Of a DNA stretch of 33,411 nt, positions 9,592 through 31,745 are shown in pieces. The stretch comes from a virus (lineage: Duplodnaviria; Caudoviricetes). The notes below the pieces were generated by a model. It was not told where the DNA came from. It was given only the letters and a program-made list of their open reading frames with translations, and did not search any database. Made by a program: the position numbers and the translations under genes. Positions within the stretch are counted from its first letter, which is position 1; each line of letters starts with the position of its first letter. Location: the IMG/VR virus record IMGVR_UViG_3300028585_000052, positions 1-33,411 of that record, one strand, 5' to 3'.

Positions 9592-10169
9592 AAATCAACT
9601 CAGCGCGCCAGGCTTGGCATGACTGCAAATACAACCCGGCCCCCGGCCAGACCTCCGACGTCGTCCAGCTCGGCGTGGTGGTGCAGAACACCGAACGCGG
9701 CCCAACGGCAAACCATGCGGTCCACGGTGCGCTTGCTGGGCATATCCAATCAGCGATCGAGCGGCTGCACCCGCAGATCCGCGTGTTCGGTGACTTCATG
9801 TACGCGGCCGAGCAGAGCGACGACATTCGGGAGGCGGCGGAAGAGGTTGTTTTCCTGCTGGTGCAAACTCGGTCGCCGCGGATGACAGCGGCGAAGCGGG
9901 AGAAGCTGGAATATGTGGTGAAGGGGATCATGCGCCGGTACCGGTACATGCACCAGGGCGGGCAATCGTCAAACGAGGACCCGCTGGCCAACGCCGAGAA
10001 GTTCCGGGCGTGGATGTGGCAGGTGTACGAGGTGCGGCTGGAGTCGTGCAACTGGGAGCGGGATTGGGGCGGTGTAATCCAGCTGATTTTCGAGTGCTGC
10101 GAGGATCTGGATCGTCGCGCTTTGAGCCCGGTAGCAGCCGTGATTTACGAAATGCGCGAGGCCGCTTGA
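9588..10169 (+). CDS. Putative late-gene antiterminator (Q position)
   Basis: MKINSARQAWHD start, C-terminal LDRRALSPVA; lies directly before a promoter-terminator pair and the lysis genes. Function inferred mainly from position. Confidence 0.7.
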   Translation: MKINSARQAWHDCKYNPAPGQTSDVVQLGVVVQNTERGPTANHAVHGALAGHIQSAIERLHPQIRVFGDFMYAAEQSDDIREAAEEVVFLLVQTRSPRMTAAKREKLEYVVKGIMRRYRYMHQGGQSSNEDPLANAEKFRAWMWQVYEVRLESCNWERDWGGVIQLIFECCEDLDRRALSPVAAVIYEMREAA

Positions 10170-10176
10170 GGGCCTA

Positions 10177-10205
10177 TTGCGTTCCCGTGCGGCTCATGGC
10201 ATGAT
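10177..10205 (+). promoter_or_regulatory. Late promoter pR'
   Basis: TTGCGT, 17-bp spacer, CATGAT with extended -10 TG; directly after Q-like gene. Confidence 0.6.
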
Positions 10206-10253
10206 TTCGCCACTGTTAGAGTTTTGCCTCCGGCAACTTACTCTCGAAACACT

Positions 10254-10281
10254 AAACCCGGCCACTGCGCCGGGTTTTTTA
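10254..10281 (+). terminator. tR'-like intrinsic terminator
   Basis: AAACCCGGC-cactgc-GCCGGGTTTTTT. Confidence 0.85.
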
Positions 10282-10294
10282 TGCCTCGAATTTA

Positions 10295-10492
10295 CCTGTA
10301 GCCGGGACAGCCCTCGGGAAGGCCTGGACGTCGATAGCCGGATAGTGCGACGCACGGATCAACGCCGGCAGCCCGTGCACCCTGACCTCACAATGCTTTC
10401 AGGGTGGCGCGAGACAGCAACAGCGAGATCGATGCAAAGGGGCGTCGACGCTGGGATGGTCTTTGGCCGACAGCTCGGAAAGACGAGCGCAC
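10295..10492 (+). ncRNA. Candidate structured ncRNA in late leader
   Basis: Helices 10337-41/10365-69, 10378-85/10399-406, 10421-35/10442-53, 10473-77/10484-88; bounded by terminators; no convincing ORF. Confidence 0.55.
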
Positions 10493-10497
10493 CTATT

Positions 10498-10531
10498 CAG
10501 GGCCTCTGCATTAGCAGGGGCTTTTTCGTTT
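10498..10531 (+). terminator. Terminator, direct-repeat copy 1
   Basis: GCCTCTGC-atta-GCAGGGGC-TTTTT; 28/34 identical to 10724-10757. Confidence 0.8.
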
Positions 10532-10544
10532 GTGGAGGTTCGGC

Positions 10545-10721
10545 ATGGGCCTTAAAAGACTCGAAGATACGGCAGCGTTCGTCGTGGTAGATGGCATCGT
10601 TTGCATTAACTGGGCACGCATTGATGCCTCTATCATCGAAAATGCAAAGCCGGTTGACTCGATTACGCCAGAGCAGCGCGTGTTCCTGAAGGGCCTCACG
10701 TTCGGCCCCATCAATCATTAA
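10545..10721 (+). CDS. Microprotein (58 aa) carrying a J tail-tip-like motif
   Basis: GGAGG SD; AFVVVDGIVCINWARIDASIIENAK aligns with J PFAVEGGQVFVDSLLVKDGSIVNAK. Confidence 0.7.
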   Translation: MGLKRLEDTAAFVVVDGIVCINWARIDASIIENAKPVDSITPEQRVFLKGLTFGPINH

Positions 10722-20076: not shown

Positions 20077-20651
20077 TGACGAACAAGGCGGGTTGGAGCC
20101 ATAGCCTCACGGACTTCGCCGATCAGGCTGGCGAGGACATCACCCAGATGGCGCGCGTTATCGCGACCGCCATGCTCACGGAGGTGGTGAATCGCTCGCC
20201 GGTGGGAAACCCTGACCTGTGGCAGGCCAACGTGGCGCTGCGCACAAAGAACGTGGCGCTGGCGGATGCCTACGACGCGAACGTCGACGCCCGTAACGCG
20301 GCGCGCACCGGTGGGCGAGCCTTCAAGAAGCTGACCAAGCGCGAGCGCGAAGAGAACTACTTCGTCAAAGCGCAGGCGGCGGGGAAGGGGTACATCGGCG
20401 GCACGTTCCGAGGCAGTCACCTGGTATCGATCGGCGCGCCAGACTTTACCGTGACCGACAACATCGACCCGTCCGGCCGCGAAACGATCAGCAAGGGGAG
20501 CATGCTCATCAAAGCATCGGGCCAGTTTCCCGTCATCTACATCCAAACGAACAGCCCCTACGGCGAGATGCTGGAGCTGGGGCATTCCACGCAGGCGCCC
20601 GGCGGGGTTTATGACCTCGCATTCATTGGAGTATCCGAGGCCTACAAATGA
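20076..20651 (+). CDS. HK97 gp10-like tail completion protein
   Basis: RSPVG...G.FR.S...N.PY...LE.GHS.QAP.G motifs. Confidence 0.8.
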   Translation: MTNKAGWSHSLTDFADQAGEDITQMARVIATAMLTEVVNRSPVGNPDLWQANVALRTKNVALADAYDANVDARNAARTGGRAFKKLTKREREENYFVKAQAAGKGYIGGTFRGSHLVSIGAPDFTVTDNIDPSGRETISKGSMLIKASGQFPVIYIQTNSPYGEMLELGHSTQAPGGVYDLAFIGVSEAYK

Positions 20652-21043
20652 CATTCGAGCAGATCAGGGCGCTCATCACCGCGCGCATGGCGGCCTTCAC
20701 TGGCATTGATCAGGCGCGGATCGATTACCCGAACCAGCCGGAGGTGTTCACGCCGCCGGCGACCGGCCTCTGGTGCCGGCTGAATATTCAATACGCCTCG
20801 GCCTTCATGGCCGGCATGGCCGATCGGCCGCACACCCGCAAGCCCGGGCAGGTCAGCATCCAGTGCTTCGCCCGAGAGCGCACCGGCACCAAGGCCATCA
20901 ACGAACTGGCCGATGCGCTTGAAGCGCACTTCGCCTACTGGATGTCCGGCGATCTGGAATGCATGGAAGCCAGCCAGGTGGTCGCCGGCGAGTTCGAGGG
21001 ATTCTACCAAATTAACGTCAACATCCGGTTTCGCGCCGGCTGA
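20648..21043 (+). CDS. Tail terminator protein
   Basis: I.YPN...F.PP....W.R...G...IQ.F.....G......LAD.L...F pattern; precedes tube gene. Confidence 0.78.
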   Translation: MTFEQIRALITARMAAFTGIDQARIDYPNQPEVFTPPATGLWCRLNIQYASAFMAGMADRPHTRKPGQVSIQCFARERTGTKAINELADALEAHFAYWMSGDLECMEASQVVAGEFEGFYQINVNIRFRAG

Positions 21044-21051
21044 GAGGGAAA

Positions 21052-21534
21052 ATGCATAGCGCAAATTATGTGCCGGGTATCTCCGGCTGGAAGCTCCACA
21101 AGAACGGAAGCCTTGAATTCAAATCGTCCGGCGACCCGTGCCTGTCTAGTGTAGGAAAAGAGGAGCCGCCAAAGCCGTTTATCGTCGTCGACGGCGTGAC
21201 GTACATGCGTCAGGAATCGAGCAGCGAATCCAGCACTGAGAAGCCGAAGTTGACCCCGCAGTGGACCGTTAAGCTCGAGCTGCTCAACGGCCAGTATGTG
21301 GCTGCCGGTATTGGGCTGGGTATTGCCTCGCAGTTTCTGGTGAGCGCGGATCGCTTCGCAGTCAACGATCGAGATGCTGAGCAAATCCTCGAAGAGCTCG
21401 AAGGCCGCATTTCCCAGACGGAGCTTGTCAGTGCGATGGCTGCGCAGGCTGAGCAAATCAAGCCCATTGCCGAAACCGTTCGCGAAGTCCTCCGCGAGGA
21501 GCTCCAGCCTGGCGGGATCCTGCACCGCAAGTAA
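21052..21534 (+). CDS. Inserted gene: concatemer of J tail-tip motifs (DUF1983-like) plus tape-measure-like C-terminus
   Basis: Four segments match this phage's J in reverse order; followed by its own terminator; interrupts the usual terminator-tube adjacency. Confidence 0.85.
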   Translation: MHSANYVPGISGWKLHKNGSLEFKSSGDPCLSSVGKEEPPKPFIVVDGVTYMRQESSSESSTEKPKLTPQWTVKLELLNGQYVAAGIGLGIASQFLVSADRFAVNDRDAEQILEELEGRISQTELVSAMAAQAEQIKPIAETVREVLREELQPGGILHRK

Positions 21535-21555: not shown

Positions 21556-21579
21556 CCCCGCCTTGAGCGGGTTTTTTTA
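21556..21579 (+). terminator. Intrinsic terminator
   Basis: CCCGC-cttga-GCGGG-TTTTTTT. Confidence 0.8.
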
Positions 21580-21601: not shown

Positions 21602-22522
21602 ATGAGCTCTGGCGCAAAAGTTGTAAGCCACATCATTGCGGAGGTGACGCCCGGCGTTACTCCCACCGGCACCTGGGACACGCTGCGCCTCACCGGCAAC
21701 GCGTTGACCCCAACCGTCAATACCGAAGTCAGCGACGAAATCACCGACACCCGCCTGAGCCAAGGCTCGGTGGCCACCAGCATCGATATCGGCGGCGATC
21801 TGACGGCCGAGTTCTCGTTCGGCTCGTTCGACCAGTTGCTCGAAGCTGCCTTCTACGGCGTGTGGACGGCTGACGTGCTGCGCGTAGGCGATACCCGTCA
21901 CACCTTCAGCATCGCCAAGGGCTACAACGACGTCGGCGTCTATGGCGTGTTCAAGGGCGCGCACGTCTCGACCTTCGCGCTGGACATCCCGTCCGAAGGC
22001 AAGGTGACCGCCACCTTCAACATGGCGTGTCTGGACTACACCGACGGCGACACCCCGATCGTCGTTTCACCGAACGCGCCGACCACCACGCCGTTCCTGT
22101 CGAACAACAACGTCGGCACGATCCTGGTGAACGGCCAGTCGCTGGAAGGCGTGGCCTGCGTATCGGCCATGACCGTGAACCTGGACAACAGCTTGCAGAC
22201 TCAGCGCTGCCTTGGCTCTGATCGCCTGGGCCCTGGTGCGCACATCGCCACCGAGGCGGCGGTCACCGGCAGCATCACGCTGGCCTGGTCGAAGCGCGCC
22301 TGGGAGATCTGGAAGAACACCTTCACCCGGACGCCGATCGCAGTTGTCTTCCCGATCACCGACTCGCTGGGCAACAAGTACACGTTCAACTTCCCGGCTG
22401 TGGAAGTGGACGGCGAACTGCCGAACGGCGGTAAGCGCGACCTGATCGAGGTCACGCTGAACTACACCGTCGCCAAACTCAGCCCGACCATCACCCGCGA
22501 AGCGGCTGATCCAACCCCGTAA
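21602..22522 (+). CDS. Major tail tube protein
   Basis: E.T.G.TP...W..LR.T...L......S.EI...R pattern; 306 aa; precedes chaperones. Confidence 0.88.
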   Translation: MSSGAKVVSHIIAEVTPGVTPTGTWDTLRLTGNALTPTVNTEVSDEITDTRLSQGSVATSIDIGGDLTAEFSFGSFDQLLEAAFYGVWTADVLRVGDTRHTFSIAKGYNDVGVYGVFKGAHVSTFALDIPSEGKVTATFNMACLDYTDGDTPIVVSPNAPTTTPFLSNNNVGTILVNGQSLEGVACVSAMTVNLDNSLQTQRCLGSDRLGPGAHIATEAAVTGSITLAWSKRAWEIWKNTFTRTPIAVVFPITDSLGNKYTFNFPAVEVDGELPNGGKRDLIEVTLNYTVAKLSPTITREAADPTP

Positions 22523-23357: not shown

Positions 23358-23513
23358 ATGAAAGATCAAAAAACGCGGGGGAGCGACTTCCCCGGCCATC
23401 AAGACGCAGGGAAGTTTCAAGACTGGCTTACTCAGAAGGTTTCCGAGACGACTCTGGCAAAAGACCTGCTATCAAAGATTCAAGCGGCAGCCGATGAGCA
23501 GACCGATCCTTAA
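23358..23513 (+). CDS. Microprotein (51 aa) carrying a J helical-motif mimic
   Basis: GGAG SD 6 nt before ATG; DAGKFQDWLTQKVSETTLAKDLLSKIQ aligns with J DVSAYLAAMAGKVGRTELGQDIVDEID. Confidence 0.65.
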   Translation: MKDQKTRGSDFPGHQDAGKFQDWLTQKVSETTLAKDLLSKIQAAADEQTDP

Positions 23514-23676
23514 TGATCGACTTGTCATCAGGAAGCGATTCAAGAAGTGCTTTTGCTGCATCTGCAACCTTGATTCGCCCCGGAACATCCAGACTTGCGA
23601 TAGCCGTTCCGATTACTTGCAGCGCAGCACAGACGCCTAGCTCGAAGGGTGTCGCCACCCGTTGTTCTTCACTCAT
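23428..23676 (-). CDS. Antisense moron protein (82 aa), function unknown; candidate lysogen-expressed defence factor
   Basis: GGAGG SD before ATG 23676; opposite to late operon; structured upstream region; 3' end overlaps the 23358 gene by 86 bp. Confidence 0.7.
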   Translation of the reverse strand: MSEEQRVATPFELGVCAALQVIGTAIASLDVPGRIKVADAAKALLESLPDDKSIIKDRSAHRLPLESLIAGLLPESSRKPSE

Positions 23677-23697
23677 TCTGACCTCCAGGTCATAAAC

Positions 23698-23749
23698 GCG
23701 CCGAGATTGGCGCAATCCCAGTCCTTGGGCTTGCAGGCAAAGGACTGGG
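23698..23749 (-). promoter_or_regulatory. Two hairpins in the presumed 5' leader of the antisense moron
   Basis: GCGCC-gagatt-GGCGC (23698-23713) and CCCAGTCCTT...AAGGACTGGG (23717-23749). Confidence 0.55.
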
Positions 23750-23824: not shown

Positions 23825-23853
23825 TTGGCGCTTCCTGCGGATGGTGGTAGATT
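23825..23853 (+). promoter_or_regulatory. Moron promoter for immunity gene
   Basis: TTGGCG, 17-bp spacer, TAGATT with extended -10 TG. Confidence 0.55.
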
Positions 23854-23879
23854 GCTGCCATTACTCAGGGAGGTTTGGC

Positions 23880-24221
23880 ATGCAAAACGATACCGGTCCA
23901 CTGGGAGTGCTAGTCCTGTTGTTCGTGGGATTTTTGGTCTACTTCATGCCAAGTCTCAACGCGCGTCACCGTCGGCACCCAAATTTCAATTCGATCCTTC
24001 TGTTGAACCTGTTCCTTGGCTGGACGCTAATTGGCTGGGTGGTCTCCATCGTGTGGTCGGCATCCTCCATTCCGCCGATTGAACCAATCAGGGTTCGCCC
24101 TGAGGCTGAGGCTTCTGAGGACAAGTATCAAAAGATAGAGCGGCTCAGCGGGCTAAAAGAGAAAGGCCTGCTCACTGAAACTGAATACGAGGCTGAAAAA
24201 GCCAAAATCTTGCAGAGCTGA
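23880..24221 (+). CDS. Superinfection immunity protein (T4 Imm-like) with C-terminal SHOCT domain
   Basis: YFMPS..A..R.H.N...I.LLNLFLGWTLIGWV...VW motif; ERL..LKEKGLLTE.EYE..K.KIL; GGAGG SD; own promoter and terminator. Confidence 0.88.
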   Translation: MQNDTGPLGVLVLLFVGFLVYFMPSLNARHRRHPNFNSILLLNLFLGWTLIGWVVSIVWSASSIPPIEPIRVRPEAEASEDKYQKIERLSGLKEKGLLTETEYEAEKAKILQS

Positions 24222-24274: not shown

Positions 24275-27187
24275 ATGGCTCAAACATCGCGCTTGGTTTT
24301 GGAGATTGATAGTCGGGACGCAGAACAGAAAGCTGCGGACACGCGAAAGGCTCTTGAAGAGCTGGAATCACTGGGGATTCCCACCCAGCGATCAATGGCG
24401 AAGGCCGGCAGCGGAATGGAGAACGCGGGCAAGAGCGCCGACAAGGCTACGAAATCTTTCGCTTCAGAGCGCAACGAAATCGAATCGCTCCTTGGTCAAA
24501 TCGATCCGCTCACAAAAAAATTTGGGGAGCTTGATCGCCAAGAACGAGAGCTGGCTCGTCATCGCGCTTCCGGCACCCTAGACCTCGATACCTACACCGA
24601 TTATCAGTCCAAAATCAGTGCGACACGCGCCGAGCTCGCCCGCTTCAACGACTCCATGACTCGAACAGGCAACACCTCAAAGCAGACGGCCGCCGCAATG
24701 AGAATGCTGCCTGCTCAATTTTCCGATATTTTCGTCTCGCTTCAAGGGGGGCAGGCACCGCTCACCGTCTTCCTGCAACAAGGCGCTCAAATCAAAGACT
24801 CGTTTGGCGGGATCGGCGCAGCTTCCAAGGCGTTGGGCGGCTACATCATGAGCCTAGTGAATCCATTCACCGTTGCGGCATCGGCGGCGGGCGCGCTGGC
24901 ACTGGTGTATTACGATGCCGAAAAAGAGGTCAGCGCCTTCAATAAGGCTTTGTTTTCAGGCTCGGCGAGCTCTGGACAGACCTCAGCGAGTCTTTCGAAG
25001 GTCTCAAAGGACACAGCAACAATCACCGGCAACTTATCTCAGGCCAAAGACGCCGTGGTAGCGCTAGCCGCAAGCAGCGGGCTCAGCCAGGTCCAGTTCA
25101 AAAATCTGGCCGAGGCATCAGCATCAATTTCAGAGTTCACTGGGAAGGGTGCAGGTGAGGTTGCCAAGTCTCTTGGAGATATGGGTGACAACGCCACCAA
25201 GGCGGCTGAAAAGATCAGCGCGCAGTATGGTTTGCTCACATCTGCCCAGTACGAGGTGATCGTCGGGCTGGACAACCAAGGCAAAAAACAGGAGGCGCTT
25301 GATTCGCTCAGTGAGTCGCTGAATCAAAATGCCCAAGAGCGTCTGAAGAAATACCGCGAGTCTCTTTCGGAAATCGAGAGGGACTGGAATGACATTGGTA
25401 CTGCGATCAGCAATGCTTACTCCAACGTCAAAAGCTCACTATTCCCAGATCTGAATCAGGAGATTGCGAATCTGGAGAAGGTGCTGGAGGGCCGCAAATC
25501 GGGTGGATTTCTTTCGAGCTTCTTCAGCGATGAACTCGGTCCGAACAGCCAGTCGACAAAATTCATTGAGGCTCAGCTCAAGTCGCTGAAGCAGCAACGA
25601 GACGTGGCAGCGTCAAAAGCCGAAATTGACGCCGCAGCAACTCGTCAGAATCAGGACCGCATCGCCGCTGAGAGCAAATGGAATGCTCTGGCGAAAAAGG
25701 AGCTTGGCGATCAGGCAAAGCTGGCGAAGGACATCGCCGACGCGAGAAGGCTTGGCGTAGAGGCAGGCAGGTCGCAGGCAGAAATCGACAAGGTCGTTGC
25801 CGACATTCAGGCCAAGTTCGACAAAAGCCAAGCGAAACCGAAGGCTGTAACCGAAGACGCTGGTCAGCGGATGCTTGACGAAGCCCGGCAGCGCTACGCA
25901 GTTCTTCAGCAGCAGAACTCACTCATCGGCAGCCAAGCCGACGGAACAAAGTCGCTCGGCACCGAGGCCAAAAAGCTGCTCGAGCTGGAACAGCAAATCG
26001 CCGACCTCAAAGACAAGAAAACGCTCACTGCCGCACAGAAGCAGATCCTCGCCATGGCGGACCTCAATCTGGCGCAGCAGAAGCAAAACGCTTCACTGGA
26101 AAAGCAGACTGAGCTGTTAGCCACTGCAGCCGAGCAGCGACAAAAGCTCGCAGCGTTTCAGGAAAACCTGCAATCGCAGCTGAAGACCGCCCAGACCGGT
26201 TTGGACAACGATTTGGCAGGCCTCGGAATGGGCGATCAGCAGCGTCAGCGGTTGAAGGAGCAGCTGAGCATCCAACAGTCGTATCAGTCGCAAATGGATC
26301 GGCTCACCTACGACTACAACAAGAGCGACAGGTCCGCCGGCAAGACCGATCTGTACAACCAGCAGACCGAAGCACTCCGCTCAGCGTTGCAAACCCGCCT
26401 CGCGATGCAGCAGCAGTATTACTCGGACGTGGACAAAGCCCAGTCGGACTGGTCGCTCGGCGCTTCATCGGCGTTTCAAACCTACTCCGAGCAGGCTCGC
26501 GACGTCGCAGGCCAGACCCGCAACCTGTTCACCAACGCCTTCAGCAACATGGAAGACGGCATTATCCAGTTCGTGAAGACCGGCAAGCTGTCGTTCAAAG
26601 ATCTGGCGGACGGCATCATCGCCGACCTGATCCGCATCCAGGTGCGGCAGGCGGCGGTGGGCATCTTCGGCACGATCTTCAGCGGGCTGACCGCCGGGGG
26701 CGCTGCTGCCGGCAACGGCCTCGCCGCTGGTTCCGCCGGCGCAACATCCTCCACGCTCGGCGCATCTGCTGCCGGATACGGCTCGAAGTTCGGATTCTCC
26801 GACGGCGGCTATACCGGCGACGGCGGTAAGTTCGAGCCGAAAGGCGTTGTGCACGGCGGCGAGTTCGTTGTCCGCAAGGAAGCGGTGAGCCAGCCCGGCG
26901 CTCGGGAATTCCTCGAGCGCATGAACGCGAACGCCAAAGGCTACGCAGATGGCGGCTACGTTGGCGCCACCGCTGCGGCATCGACCTCCAATGTCGTCCC
27001 GATCTCGTCGGGCTCGTCCACTGCGCCGGTCATCCGGCAGAGCTTCAGCTTCCAAGGCACGCCAGATGACGCCACCGTCAACATGGTGCGCGAGGCGGCA
27101 ATGCAGGGTGCGAAGGGCGGCTACGAGCTGGTCGTGCGCGACCTGAAAATGAACGGAACCATCCGCCAGCTGATCGCGCGGCGCTAA
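24275..27187 (+). CDS. Tail tape measure protein (lambda family)
   Basis: 970 aa helical; LPAQFSDIFVSLQGGQAPL.V.LQQG.QIKD; F.KTGKLSFK; GGYTG.GGK.EP.G.VH.GEFV motifs. Confidence 0.95.
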   Translation: MAQTSRLVLEIDSRDAEQKAADTRKALEELESLGIPTQRSMAKAGSGMENAGKSADKATKSFASERNEIESLLGQIDPLTKKFGELDRQERELARHRASGTLDLDTYTDYQSKISATRAELARFNDSMTRTGNTSKQTAAAMRMLPAQFSDIFVSLQGGQAPLTVFLQQGAQIKDSFGGIGAASKALGGYIMSLVNPFTVAASAAGALALVYYDAEKEVSAFNKALFSGSASSGQTSASLSKVSKDTATITGNLSQAKDAVVALAASSGLSQVQFKNLAEASASISEFTGKGAGEVAKSLGDMGDNATKAAEKISAQYGLLTSAQYEVIVGLDNQGKKQEALDSLSESLNQNAQERLKKYRESLSEIERDWNDIGTAISNAYSNVKSSLFPDLNQEIANLEKVLEGRKSGGFLSSFFSDELGPNSQSTKFIEAQLKSLKQQRDVAASKAEIDAAATRQNQDRIAAESKWNALAKKELGDQAKLAKDIADARRLGVEAGRSQAEIDKVVADIQAKFDKSQAKPKAVTEDAGQRMLDEARQRYAVLQQQNSLIGSQADGTKSLGTEAKKLLELEQQIADLKDKKTLTAAQKQILAMADLNLAQQKQNASLEKQTELLATAAEQRQKLAAFQENLQSQLKTAQTGLDNDLAGLGMGDQQRQRLKEQLSIQQSYQSQMDRLTYDYNKSDRSAGKTDLYNQQTEALRSALQTRLAMQQQYYSDVDKAQSDWSLGASSAFQTYSEQARDVAGQTRNLFTNAFSNMEDGIIQFVKTGKLSFKDLADGIIADLIRIQVRQAAVGIFGTIFSGLTAGGAAAGNGLAAGSAGATSSTLGASAAGYGSKFGFSDGGYTGDGGKFEPKGVVHGGEFVVRKEAVSQPGAREFLERMNANAKGYADGGYVGATAAASTSNVVPISSGSSTAPVIRQSFSFQGTPDDATVNMVREAAMQGAKGGYELVVRDLKMNGTIRQLIARR

Positions 27188-28395: not shown

Positions 28396-28794
28396 ATGCG
28401 CTACCGAGACTGGACAACCCGTCTGAACGAAACGATCAAGGCCGCCCAAGAGCGGCCTTTTTCATGGGGCGAATTTGACTGCTGCCTGTTCGCAGCCGAC
28501 TGCACGGCTTCGGTGTGTGGTGTCGATCCGGCGGATAACTATCGCGGCAAGTACACGACGGAGACCGGTGCGAAGCGGCAGTTGAAGAAGCAGCACGGCA
28601 GCCTTGAGGCGGCGTGGGATACACACTTTGCCCGGGTGCCGCTGCCGTTCATCCAGCGCGGTGACGTCGTGCTGTACGACGCGCCCGGCGGACGAAGCAT
28701 GGCCGTGTTTTGGGCGGGAGATTACTGGGCGGCGACCGATGACGGTGCTGCTCGAGTTGAGTGCGAGCCACTGGCCGCGTGGAGAATTGAATGA
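28396..28794 (+). CDS. NlpC/P60-like tail assembly protein (gpK analogue)
   Basis: PFSWGEFDCCLFAAD...G.DP and QRGDVV motifs; start set at ATG 28396. Confidence 0.8.
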   Translation: MRYRDWTTRLNETIKAAQERPFSWGEFDCCLFAADCTASVCGVDPADNYRGKYTTETGAKRQLKKQHGSLEAAWDTHFARVPLPFIQRGDVVLYDAPGGRSMAVFWAGDYWAATDDGAARVECEPLAAWRIE

Positions 28795-31745
28795 GCGGCG
28801 GCGTTAAAAAACTTGCATCGGTCGTCATTGGCGCGGTGGTTGGTTTTGCCCAGGGCGGACCATGGGGTGCGGTTGCAGGCGCAGCGCTTGCCTTTTACGC
28901 CGCCGAGCAGCAGGAAAAGCTCAACACGAAGTCGCCTCTGCGTGACAACGAGCCGTCCGCCCAGACCGTACGCTCTTCGAAGGCGCCGGTGCGCTTCATC
29001 CTTGGGCGCGTTTCCACCGGCGGCGTACTGGTATGGGCGCAGGAGCAGACCGGCGCTCAGGGTGAGGGTGAATGGCTCCACCTGGTGTACGTGCTGTGCG
29101 AGGGGGCGATCGATGCCCTCGAAAACATCTACCTCGGCGAGGAAGAGATCGGCGCATTCGGACCGCTGGCCAGCTACGAGCTGGTCGTCAATCCGACTCA
29201 AGTGAACGCGTTCCTGAAGGCCAACTGCCCCGACTGGAAAGACTCGCAGATCGGACGCGGCTTGTCCTATGTGCGGGTTTCCCTCCGTTACAGCGCAGAG
29301 AAGTTTCCATCGGGCATCCCTGACACGCGTTTTGTGGTTCGCGGGCGGAATGATATTTACGATCCGCGCACCGGGGCGGCGGGTTATAGCGCGAACACTG
29401 CGTTACACCTGCTCTGGTTCCTGCGCAACCGCTGCAACGTGCCGGACGATGAAATCGTCTTCGAGACCTTCGCCAGCGCTGCCAACGTCTGCGACGAAGG
29501 CGTAACCAATGCCGACGGCTCGACGAGCCAGCGGTATCGCACCGGCTGTGTAATCGGTGCGGACGAGCAGCGCACCGGCGTTCTCCAGAAGCTGGAAGCA
29601 GCGTCGGGCGGCCATCTGATCCGTGTTGGCGGCCGCTGGATGTTCCAGGCTGGCGCCTATTACGGCCCGTACGACTTCGAGATCACCGAGGACATGGTGA
29701 TCGGCACAGTCACCGGCAGCACTGAGCCAACCAATGACACCGCAATCAACACCGTGCGCGGCACGTTCATCGATCCGGAACAGTCCTGGACCGAGACGGA
29801 TTACCCGGAAGTCAGCGTAGCCGAATGGATCGTTGAGGACGGAGGTGAGGCGGCGGAGACGCTGACCTATTCCTATGTCTCCGATCCCTATCAGGCTCAG
29901 CGCCTGGCGAACATGGAACTGCGCCGGCGCCGCGCTGGTGGCGCTATCAGCATCCCGATGAACTTCGCCGGATACAACTGCAGGCCTGGCCGCGTGGTTC
30001 GCGTGAACCTGCCATCGCTGAACATCCTTGGCGAGTTCATCGTCTCCGACTGGTCGATGGGCGATCGCGAGGGCTGCACGGTTCAGGTCAAGCAGTACGA
30101 GCCTGCGATCTTCGACGACGCTGTCGGCCAGCCGTACAACCCGATCGGCTTCATCAATCTGCCTTCCGGCGGACTGGGCACGCCCACGAATCTCGCGTGG
30201 ACGCAGGACACCACGGCCGAGGTGACGCAGGGCGTTCTATCGTGGACGCCTCCTGCAGGAGTGGTGAAGGAGTACATCGTCATCGTCCGGCAGGGCGCGA
30301 CCGCGATTCAGTCGCACAACGTGCCTGCTACATCGACGGAATGCGCCATCAATGGCTTGCCGTCCGGCAACTACACCATGAGCGTGGCGGCCGCCGGCCC
30401 CATGGCGCGTTCAGGTGAGGTGACGATCACCGTTAGCATCAACGGCCCGCCCATCCCGGAAAGCTGCGTCGTGCAGTCTTCGATCGACAACATCGTGCTG
30501 ATTCCGAGCAACCCGCAGAACGGGCTGAACGGCGGCACGTACGAGTACTTCTTCAGTACTTCGCCGAACGCAACCTCGGACGACGCCGAGTATCTCGGTC
30601 AGGGGCTGTCTTTCACGCACACGGGGCTGGGCTTCTGGACGAACTATTACTATTTCGTTCGCTCATCCAATGCGTACGGGAAAAGCTCTTTCCTGTTCGT
30701 TCCGGCCCAGACCTCAAACGATGTTTCGGCATACCTGGCCGCCATGGCGGGAAAAGTTGGACGCACGGAACTGGGGCAGGACATTGTCGATGAGATCGAC
30801 AAAATCCCTGGCCTTCAGGATCAGATCGATGATCTGTCAAACCCGATGCTTTACGAGAAGACAGATGCATATCTGACTGGAGCTGTCGTTTATCAGGGGG
30901 ATCGTCTGTATCGGGCCAAGCAGGACGTTCCCGCCGAGCCAAGCGGAGCCAACGCGCCACCGAACACAACCTACTGGGAAGACATTGGCCAGATTTTGCA
31001 GGAGGCAAACGCGCTGGCCGCGCAGGTATCCGAGAACACGCTGAATATAGACCAGCAGGGGGACCAACTTAGCGCACAGGCATCAAAGCTGGATGGCGTG
31101 TATGTCCAAGTGAACCCGGCGCTGGCTGGTGACACGACGGGCTTTGCGGGATCAGATCAGGTCTACATCGGTGTCTGGTCAGAGCAGTCGGCGCGGCTTG
31201 AGGACGGCGTTGCCACTGCCCGTCGTGTTGACACAGTGCAGGCGGAAGTCAACAAAAACAGCGCCACCGTCCAAACGGTGAGCCAGTCCGTCGCGACTCT
31301 GGATGGCAAGGTATCTACAAGCTGGTCGGTGAAGATGCAGGTGGCTGCGAACGGTCAGTACGTAGTGGCAGGGGTTGGCCTCGGGATTGAAAATGGACCC
31401 GCAGGCCTTCAGAGCCAGTTCCTTGTCAGTGCCGACCGATTCGCGATAGTAAATTCCATCGCAGGCGGAGCCATAACTATTCCATTTGCGGTGGAAGGCG
31501 GGCAGGTATTCGTCGACAGTCTGCTGGTTAAAGACGGCTCCATCGTTAATGCGAAAATAGGCGCATTCATCCAATCCGATAACTATGTATCGGGCGTCCA
31601 AGGCTGGCGGCTGGATAAACTTGGAAACCTTGAGTTCAATGGGCCGGCGCCTGGCGGAGGGCGATTAACAATGACTAACCGGGCGATCAAGGTGTTTGAC
31701 CAAAACGGAGTTAAACGGGTGCAGCTTGGAGATCTCGACGCATGA
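28791..31745 (+). CDS. Host specificity / central tail tip protein J
   Basis: 984 aa; tail hub N-terminus, FnIII-like repeats, CBM-like insert, DUF1983-like C-terminus (AGVGLGIEN...SQFLVSADRFA; IQSDNYV.G..GW.LDK.G.LEFN). Confidence 0.93.
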   Translation: MSGGVKKLASVVIGAVVGFAQGGPWGAVAGAALAFYAAEQQEKLNTKSPLRDNEPSAQTVRSSKAPVRFILGRVSTGGVLVWAQEQTGAQGEGEWLHLVYVLCEGAIDALENIYLGEEEIGAFGPLASYELVVNPTQVNAFLKANCPDWKDSQIGRGLSYVRVSLRYSAEKFPSGIPDTRFVVRGRNDIYDPRTGAAGYSANTALHLLWFLRNRCNVPDDEIVFETFASAANVCDEGVTNADGSTSQRYRTGCVIGADEQRTGVLQKLEAASGGHLIRVGGRWMFQAGAYYGPYDFEITEDMVIGTVTGSTEPTNDTAINTVRGTFIDPEQSWTETDYPEVSVAEWIVEDGGEAAETLTYSYVSDPYQAQRLANMELRRRRAGGAISIPMNFAGYNCRPGRVVRVNLPSLNILGEFIVSDWSMGDREGCTVQVKQYEPAIFDDAVGQPYNPIGFINLPSGGLGTPTNLAWTQDTTAEVTQGVLSWTPPAGVVKEYIVIVRQGATAIQSHNVPATSTECAINGLPSGNYTMSVAAAGPMARSGEVTITVSINGPPIPESCVVQSSIDNIVLIPSNPQNGLNGGTYEYFFSTSPNATSDDAEYLGQGLSFTHTGLGFWTNYYYFVRSSNAYGKSSFLFVPAQTSNDVSAYLAAMAGKVGRTELGQDIVDEIDKIPGLQDQIDDLSNPMLYEKTDAYLTGAVVYQGDRLYRAKQDVPAEPSGANAPPNTTYWEDIGQILQEANALAAQVSENTLNIDQQGDQLSAQASKLDGVYVQVNPALAGDTTGFAGSDQVYIGVWSEQSARLEDGVATARRVDTVQAEVNKNSATVQTVSQSVATLDGKVSTSWSVKMQVAANGQYVVAGVGLGIENGPAGLQSQFLVSADRFAIVNSIAGGAITIPFAVEGGQVFVDSLLVKDGSIVNAKIGAFIQSDNYVSGVQGWRLDKLGNLEFNGPAPGGGRLTMTNRAIKVFDQNGVKRVQLGDLDA

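Follow-up and report, generated by a model that had tools for sequence, protein, structure and literature searches.

An optional phage gene on the late-gene strand made of reversed tail-tip pieces and a tape-measure-like end: a candidate multi-epitope decoy

Recent work has described defences directed at the phage tail tip, namely HepS, Tai, Tab and Bil, and the published escapes from them are point changes in the tip attachment protein J or one-to-one antidotes. HepS, a Salmonella protein known from enterobacterial prophages (the main text makes no mention of Pseudomonas), is activated, probably during J synthesis, by lambda J 902-933, and J with the F924S change binds HepS yet does not activate it (PMC13043305). 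Sensitivity to Tab was mapped to the tape-measure protein (TMP) C-terminus in P. aeruginosa phages (PMC10884400 section 7). Tai escapes map to the C-terminal region of J, the supplement marking V1185 of phi80; the same source reports that J is insoluble when expressed and that loss of phi80 ati (orf64) lowers the titre (PMC11364771). Bil is reported to conjugate to the central tail fibre (10.1101/2023.09.04.556158). On the phage side, Ati (phi80 orf64) and anti-Tab (JBD26) are encoded by small genes of the late operon and protect tail assembly, and both are reported to bind the inhibitor (PMC11364771, PMC10884400). DSAD1 competes with a structural trigger, the tail tube, for the sensor site on DSR2 (PMC11087589).

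The window, that is, the whole stretch of DNA analysed, is an entire virus record of 33,411 bases, 67% complete, and shows a siphophage late region. A preliminary description had placed a 160-residue reading frame, here called gene X, between the terminator and tube genes, had read it as pieces of the phage's own J joined in reverse order, and had proposed that it acts as a decoy. The coordinates proved correct, and the setting of X is as follows.

20648..21043, + strand: tail terminator gene, the upstream flank (PF13554, phrog_179)
21052..21534, + strand: gene X, an accessory J/TMP mosaic of 160 residues (phrog_18217 family; partial PF09327)
21557..21579, + strand: hairpin and T run 5' of the tube gene, part of the site and not of X
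21602..22522, + strand: tail tube gene, the downstream flank (PF18906, phrog_290)
24275..27187, + strand: tape-measure (TMP) gene
28791..31745, + strand: gene for tip attachment protein J, of the type copied in blocks C, B, A, a and D (PF09327 E 6e-45, phrog_31 E 9e-160; relatives in the PDB)

Gene X starts 8 nt past the stop of the terminator gene, and a purine-rich stretch lies upstream of its ATG. The hairpin 3' of X was considered as a terminator belonging to X and ruled out; the same hairpin is found at sites that are empty of X. Against PF09327, X scored 52.3 bits (cut-off 22), the match covering profile positions 8-67 of 139 only. It matched phrog_18217 at E 2.8e-27, and phrog_13555 was also matched. 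The former is a large, uncharacterised family whose database labels are often J or DUF1983; matches in the ESM Atlas were DUF1983-labelled clusters only, and the named relatives of X are of Pseudomonas origin. No description of the phrog_18217 family was found in the incomplete set of literature covered. X belongs to this unnamed family and is not a J. Elsewhere in the window, a superinfection immunity protein (PF14373) with a SHOCT domain is encoded at 23841-24221, 5' of the TMP gene.

Like J (PF09327/DUF1983; lambda gpJ, phrog_31), X has four homologous sequence blocks, and a fifth block resembles the end of a TMP.

21058..21120, + strand: block C, residues 3-23, copy of J 929-949 (13/21 identical; 0/200 shuffles)
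21175..21255, + strand: block B, residues 42-68, hairpin and decayed tail, copy of J 898-922
21262..21360, + strand: blocks A and a, residues 71-103, copy of J 845-885 minus the intervening loop (BLASTP E 1e-12)
21373..21426, + strand: block D, residues 108-125, helix copying J 644-661, the start of the shaft (13.8 bits, J-only profile)
21475..21531, + strand: block T, residues 142-160, like the C-terminal motif of one TMP type, not the type of its own phage

All four J matches of the preliminary description were found at their places. Block C answers to J 929-949 at window 31575-31637; B is identical to J 898-907 at 4/10 positions, A to J 854-866 at 11/13, the SQFLVSADRFA block to J at 11/11, and D to J 644-661 at 6/18. 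BLASTP of X against its own J gave E 1e-12 for A plus a, 2e-6 for C and 0.24 for D, and reported no match for B. With 200 shuffled proteins, the scores of C, A and a were reached by 0/200; that of D was reached by 23/200, which is marginal in this pair alone. Block B was at chance level pairwise (200/200 shuffles), yet its best position in J was the expected one. Blocks B and D are established by J-only profiles applied to the family. Family members were selected by the N-terminal block C motif and then an A- or B-type motif, so that C is part of the selection; 197 distinct members were pooled from protein searches and loci, and a phi80 ORF brought the number to 198. At 8 bits or more, the sequences with a match among these 198 numbered 156 for A, 95 for a, 90 for B, 63 for D and 16 for E, a block from the J end. 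These numbers are far above the controls, in which shuffled sequences gave 0 and reversed ones no more than 1 (1 each for B and D). The serine-rich stretch ESSSESSTEKPK, earlier taken for a linker, aligns instead with block B's decayed tail, where the family consensus tracks J 908-922. The earlier view that the peptide and not the DNA is conserved stood for this copy, in which 9/11 codons of the SQFLVSADRFA block differ from those of J, but not for some relatives: 57/71 X genes matched some long gene at the DNA level (E 0.001 or better), and the strongest of these matches, to J genes, had 93% identity over 57-62 nt. Such identity over that length suggests recent re-copying from J.

The preliminary description had no TMP block, nor did it cover the family, X's other site in the genome or the mini-gene discussed below. 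A profile of the family ends scored at least 8 bits with 6/203 ends of long ORFs vs 1/2030 internal windows, and its top-scoring ORF ends include the annotated TMP of Medea1. A TMP-only profile found block T in 56/198 members vs 0 controls, the copy in the window reaching only 2.4 bits. A second TMP type, with matches down to E 2e-15, supplies the C-terminal end of 12 members. This second type is the one that the window itself encodes, the C-terminal helix of its TMP (residues 930-958) being the type copied by other family members. The TMP type of X was the phage's own in 13/16 typed loci, the window being a mismatch. A profile search for the TMP N-terminal block in the Pseudomonas family gave 0/198 at 6 bits.

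Reverse-to-J order was retained across the family. Among 152 representatives (80% identity), B preceded A in 64:0 cases, A preceded D in 48:0 and B preceded D in 29:0, counts in which the representatives share ancestry and are not independent events. The 152 representatives showed 43 block layouts, in which blocks come and go while the order is kept; A and a were swapped in four family members. Reversal is not universal, since the mosaic of PMBT14 (AUM59787.1, also phrog_18217) has A, B, D and T in another order, with A before B. Between C and B, some long members (P0023, P0038, P0110 and others) carry an insert of about 100 residues that comes in two or three variants; long members also have two shorter inserts that recur. 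The inserts may copy other phage proteins; a source for all three was sought among 18,907 ORFs from the loci, and none was found.

Selection was compared segment by segment, as the preliminary description had proposed. Against the two closest alleles, block A showed 9 and 8 synonymous and 0 non-synonymous changes, and the tail of block B showed 11 and 10 non-synonymous changes. Pooled pN/pS, uncorrected and with the query common to all pairs, was 0.22-0.35 in C, B, A and a and 0.51 in T. Gene X is under purifying selection. If X were functionless debris of J duplications, internal stops such as those in some copies (2/9 matches) and the decayed tail of block B in the window copy would be in keeping. 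The purifying selection is not, the synonymous excess largely refuting this explanation, and neither are the intact frames and conserved block order in 152 divergent representatives, nor the 168 clusters, some of them J proteins, that match X at E 1e-10 or better. We regard the debris explanation as barely credible.

The distribution of X was examined in the best 80 of 276 terminator-anchored loci, which were not dereplicated. The site was empty in 37, held X in 15 (14 plus L003, in which the tube gene is cut off) and held other inserts in 28; an empty site is 62-67 nt. In L001-L006 the flanks were 93-100% identical and the X alleles 42-89%. The interval between terminator and tube is a hot spot at which X is accessory. 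NUMOD4-HNH endonuclease genes were seen at the same hot spot in 2/80 loci (L120:10397-11053 (-) and L136:10397-10987 (-)). Of 71 distinct X loci, 38 lay between terminator and tube, in phages with different tube families, 30 lay directly 5' of holin and 3 were unresolved. One prophage, L192, has two X copies, 577-954 and 10001-10684, one per site. At 68/68 resolved loci X is on the same strand as the tube or holin genes. Because X occupies two sites and keeps to the late-gene strand, what matters for X seems to be late timing and not a place in the tail module. Fifty longer records of the 80 were searched as a whole; of the 33 that are at least 90% complete, 4 had X, 17 matched through J only and 12 had no match. 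In one complete provirus without X, the identity of J is 92% across the tip and 96% across block D. Because 17/33 near-complete relatives match through J and have no X copy, X is dispensable; it is neither a core gene nor an essential virion part or chaperone. This outcome and that of the fold modelling below bear on two of the three refuting conditions named in the preliminary description and did not refute its decoy proposal, which is partly supported; its link to Tai is weak for this copy. X was present in 8/151 genomes of the seed's genus, the seed counted, and wherever the tail end of a carrier is visible, a full J accompanies X. Unlike J, then, X is dispensable and has 160 residues instead of about 1000; its blocks are reversed, its loops removed, its N-terminal hub and Ig domains missing, and a TMP piece is added.

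The preliminary description had supposed that reversed fragments were unlikely to rebuild the J fold, and the monomer models are in keeping with this. AlphaFold2 monomers of X built from 37 and 79 sequences had pLDDT 57 and 67 and pTM 0.21 and 0.26; they showed hairpins C, B and A and confident helices D and T in no fixed arrangement. No compact permuted domain is predicted for the monomer. A fold search with the pTM 0.26 model against PDB and BFVD gave nothing at E 0.001 or better; N15 gp59 was third, at E 0.22, which is not significant. For J itself, the closest solved relative of window J 795-950 is the F2 pyocin tail fibre (PDB 25VF, E 1e-49), and sensors of this region would also meet the F-type pyocins of the host. 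These data bear on whether X is a trimeric mini-fibre, that is, a minor, optional virion part. All of its blocks come from trimeric parts, its PF09327 match is above the cut-off, and many copies lie among tail genes. Against this, 30/71 copies lie before holin, away from tail genes, X has no receptor-binding or attachment domain, and the fold search yielded no match at E 0.001 or better. That X is such a fibre is very unlikely.

The main rival to the decoy explanation is that X shields its own tip proteins or is an optional assembly helper. X would run antiparallel along J and TMP of its own phage as these are made, like blocks paired, so that both stay soluble or masked up to tip assembly; immune evasion could be its purpose too. 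The order C-B-A-D-T runs from the far tip end inwards, provided that the TMP end sits within the tip where we take it to sit. Like segments bind each other in the homotrimer, and X matches its own TMP type in 13/16 typed pairs. The reported insolubility of expressed J (PMC11364771) is also consistent with such a role. X is nevertheless missing from complete relatives whose J is 92-96% identical over these regions, blocks are joined by short links that vary, and blocks are freely gained and lost, as the number of layouts attests; moreover, the window X carries the other TMP type. We consider this role unlikely.

An antisense gene family occupied the same site, between terminator and tube, in 18/80 loci (e.g., L087:4107-4670 (-); alignment A2). 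Its products, of 181-230 residues, have an N-terminal hydrophobic helix and a conserved acidic/histidine/tryptophan motif; searches of Pfam, PHROG and PADLOC gave no noteworthy match, and its Atlas clusters are unnamed. By its tai/tab-like arrangement in the late operon, it is a candidate new prophage defence gene. Its assignment as a Tai was rejected, as BLASTP showed no likeness to phi80 TaiEcA. The idea that X is the antidote to this gene was ruled out, 10/11 carrier records being without X; the two genes occurred together in 1/50 records, and the window site holds X as its sole insert. X itself was also compared with Tai and Tab. It is on the sense strand, no promoter-like site was seen on the X strand, the X profile did not match phi80 tai, and PADLOC gave no match for X. 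The ORF assigned to TaiEcA in phi80 (L267:4366-4980 (-)) has an R-x4-H string like a HEPN motif, which is kept in 3 Tai-like ORFs of a Pseudomonas-centred search (L271, L273, L274). The accessible text of PMC11364771 makes no mention of a nuclease motif in Tai. Proteins 27-35% like the N-terminal half of TaiEcA were found in 8/301 genomes (genus of G051).

The presence of that candidate defence gene at the same site in 18/80 loci is in line with X being a competition weapon, a set of dominant-negative fragments poisoning the tips of co-induced prophages or co-infecting phages. The blocks are self-associating trimer segments, and the T block of the window copy suits a foreign TMP type. A weapon of this kind would nonetheless be expected to poison its own phage, since its blocks A, a and C are like J of that phage, and X loci showed neither an antisense nor a promoter-bearing arrangement for expression in the lysogen. 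We judge it quite improbable.

The decoy explanation draws on the correspondence between the blocks and published targets. By alignment with the lambda record, lambda J 902-933 is the block B hairpin; X has Y51 at the place of F924 and V49 at that of Q922. At the HepS positions, 67/67 scored J blocks read QVF and 63/106 family blocks read VTY. Block B is thus a hairpin homologous to the HepS trigger peptide, but both key positions differ. A search for hepS in the LT2 Gifsy-1 stretch did not find it. V1185 of phi80 aligns with V977 of the window J, in block E; an E-like motif was found in 34/152 relatives vs 4 shuffled, and block E is missing from the window X. In principle X resembles DSAD1, trigger competition being what is proposed for X by analogy. 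DSAD1 has a fold of its own and one target, whereas X, whose activity is putative, strings together literal copies of more than one trigger. By likeness of sequence, its blocks are copies of published target regions (the HepS trigger and, possibly, the TMP C-terminus) and could act by site occupancy. X is like Ati and anti-Tab in lying on the late-operon strand (68/68 resolved loci) and is predicted to be transcribed with that operon. Those genes adjoin their cognate defence gene; for X, a constant partner is lacking. The 76-residue phi80 ORF beside tai did not match the X profile.

Simpler and looser relatives of X were found elsewhere, beginning with a second accessory interval of the window.

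23358..23513, + strand: predicted mini-ORF of 51 residues with block D alone (J-only profile 11.4-12.8 bits)

Relatives of this mini-ORF were picked up by tblastn in L248 and L239 (E 1e-12 and 1e-9). Its GC3 is low (0.54), and it is overlapped by an antisense ORF of 95 residues, 23428-23715 (-), which matches phrog_17867 at E 3e-16. Short single-block ORFs were also seen in other tail-operon gaps (L154:15961-16137, L068:4144-4386, L240:11910-12071 and L074:1217-1414), with the TMP-end block only or A(+a) only; these are single observations. Among classic phages, residues 14-122 of N15 gp59 (phrog_13555) match J profiles in an FN3 domain (E 3e-9), and a TMP-like motif stands at its end. The last ORF of phi80 (phrog_17079) is above the PF09327 cut-off, and among the relatives listed for it 27/120 reach at least 8 bits for block B vs 0 controls. 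Like X, the N15, phi80 and PMBT14 ORFs consist of J-like pieces with a TMP-like end; they are uncharacterised and adjoin or lie behind lysis genes. They differ from X in block sets and orders, N15 having the FN3 domain and phi80 an unrelated N-terminal domain. Pairwise BLASTP of the phi80 and N15 ORFs against the J of lambda or of the window was not significant, and these mosaics are linked to J only by profiles and by phi80's own J (E 0.002). No function for N15 gp59, the phi80 last ORF or AUM59787.1 was found in the literature or databases searched. By gene order the phi80 mosaic is orf66, and presumably it was present in the phage that lost ati.

We propose that X is a late multi-epitope decoy against host or rival-prophage proteins that sense or block the nascent tail tip, a proposal to which we give an even chance of being right. 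A counter-defence role fits best with a gene that is optional, selected and fast-varying, travels between two late-operon sites and is made of conserved tip segments. By analogy, X likely works like a trigger-competing anti-defence protein. It would be made late, together with the tail proteins, and each block would fold locally on a flexible chain and serve as bait. Short blocks would suffice if what sensors bind is J and TMP chains before assembly, as is reported in the case of HepS. In the homotrimer like segments would pair, and a copy in J order could co-assemble with the tip and poison it; the reversed order would prevent in-register pairing with the phage's own J trimer beyond one block. 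The residue changes in block B may allow binding without activation. For the decoy, the blocks overlap published targets: that of HepS (block B), that of Tab (possibly the motif of block T), that of Tai (block E, in the family only) and that of Bil (the central tail fibre). Several points tell against it. Block E, the Tai-linked block, is missing from the window X, which leaves the Tai link weak for this copy, and phi80 without ati lost titre, its distant mosaic (apparently orf66) giving no rescue from Tai. HepS is a Salmonella protein, while the relatives of X are from Pseudomonas. A copy of a trigger could activate the sensor, the Y at the place of F924 still being aromatic. The PMBT14 mosaic is without reversal, block T mismatches its own TMP type where 13/16 typed pairs otherwise match, and the low pTM of the models may merely reflect the missing oligomer.

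Whatever becomes of the decoy explanation, a selected, order-reversed tail-tip mosaic calls for an explanation, and hundreds of database entries that carry a J or DUF1983 label do not represent J. We think it slightly short of an even chance that X belongs to a class of late "epitope string" genes in lambdoid phages of Pseudomonas and enterobacteria, ranging from one-block mini-genes to five-block chains, which copy exactly the tip segments recognised by defences, are refreshed by recombination with J and TMP, and are reversed so that the real tip is not poisoned. The proposal is readily testable, since looser versions exist in the classic phages N15 and phi80 and single blocks can be used as sensor bait. 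If it is true, the block list would be a map of defence-recognised epitopes, implying undiscovered sensors for A, C and D, and a broad decoy made from the virus's own structural proteins would be a new principle of counter-defence.
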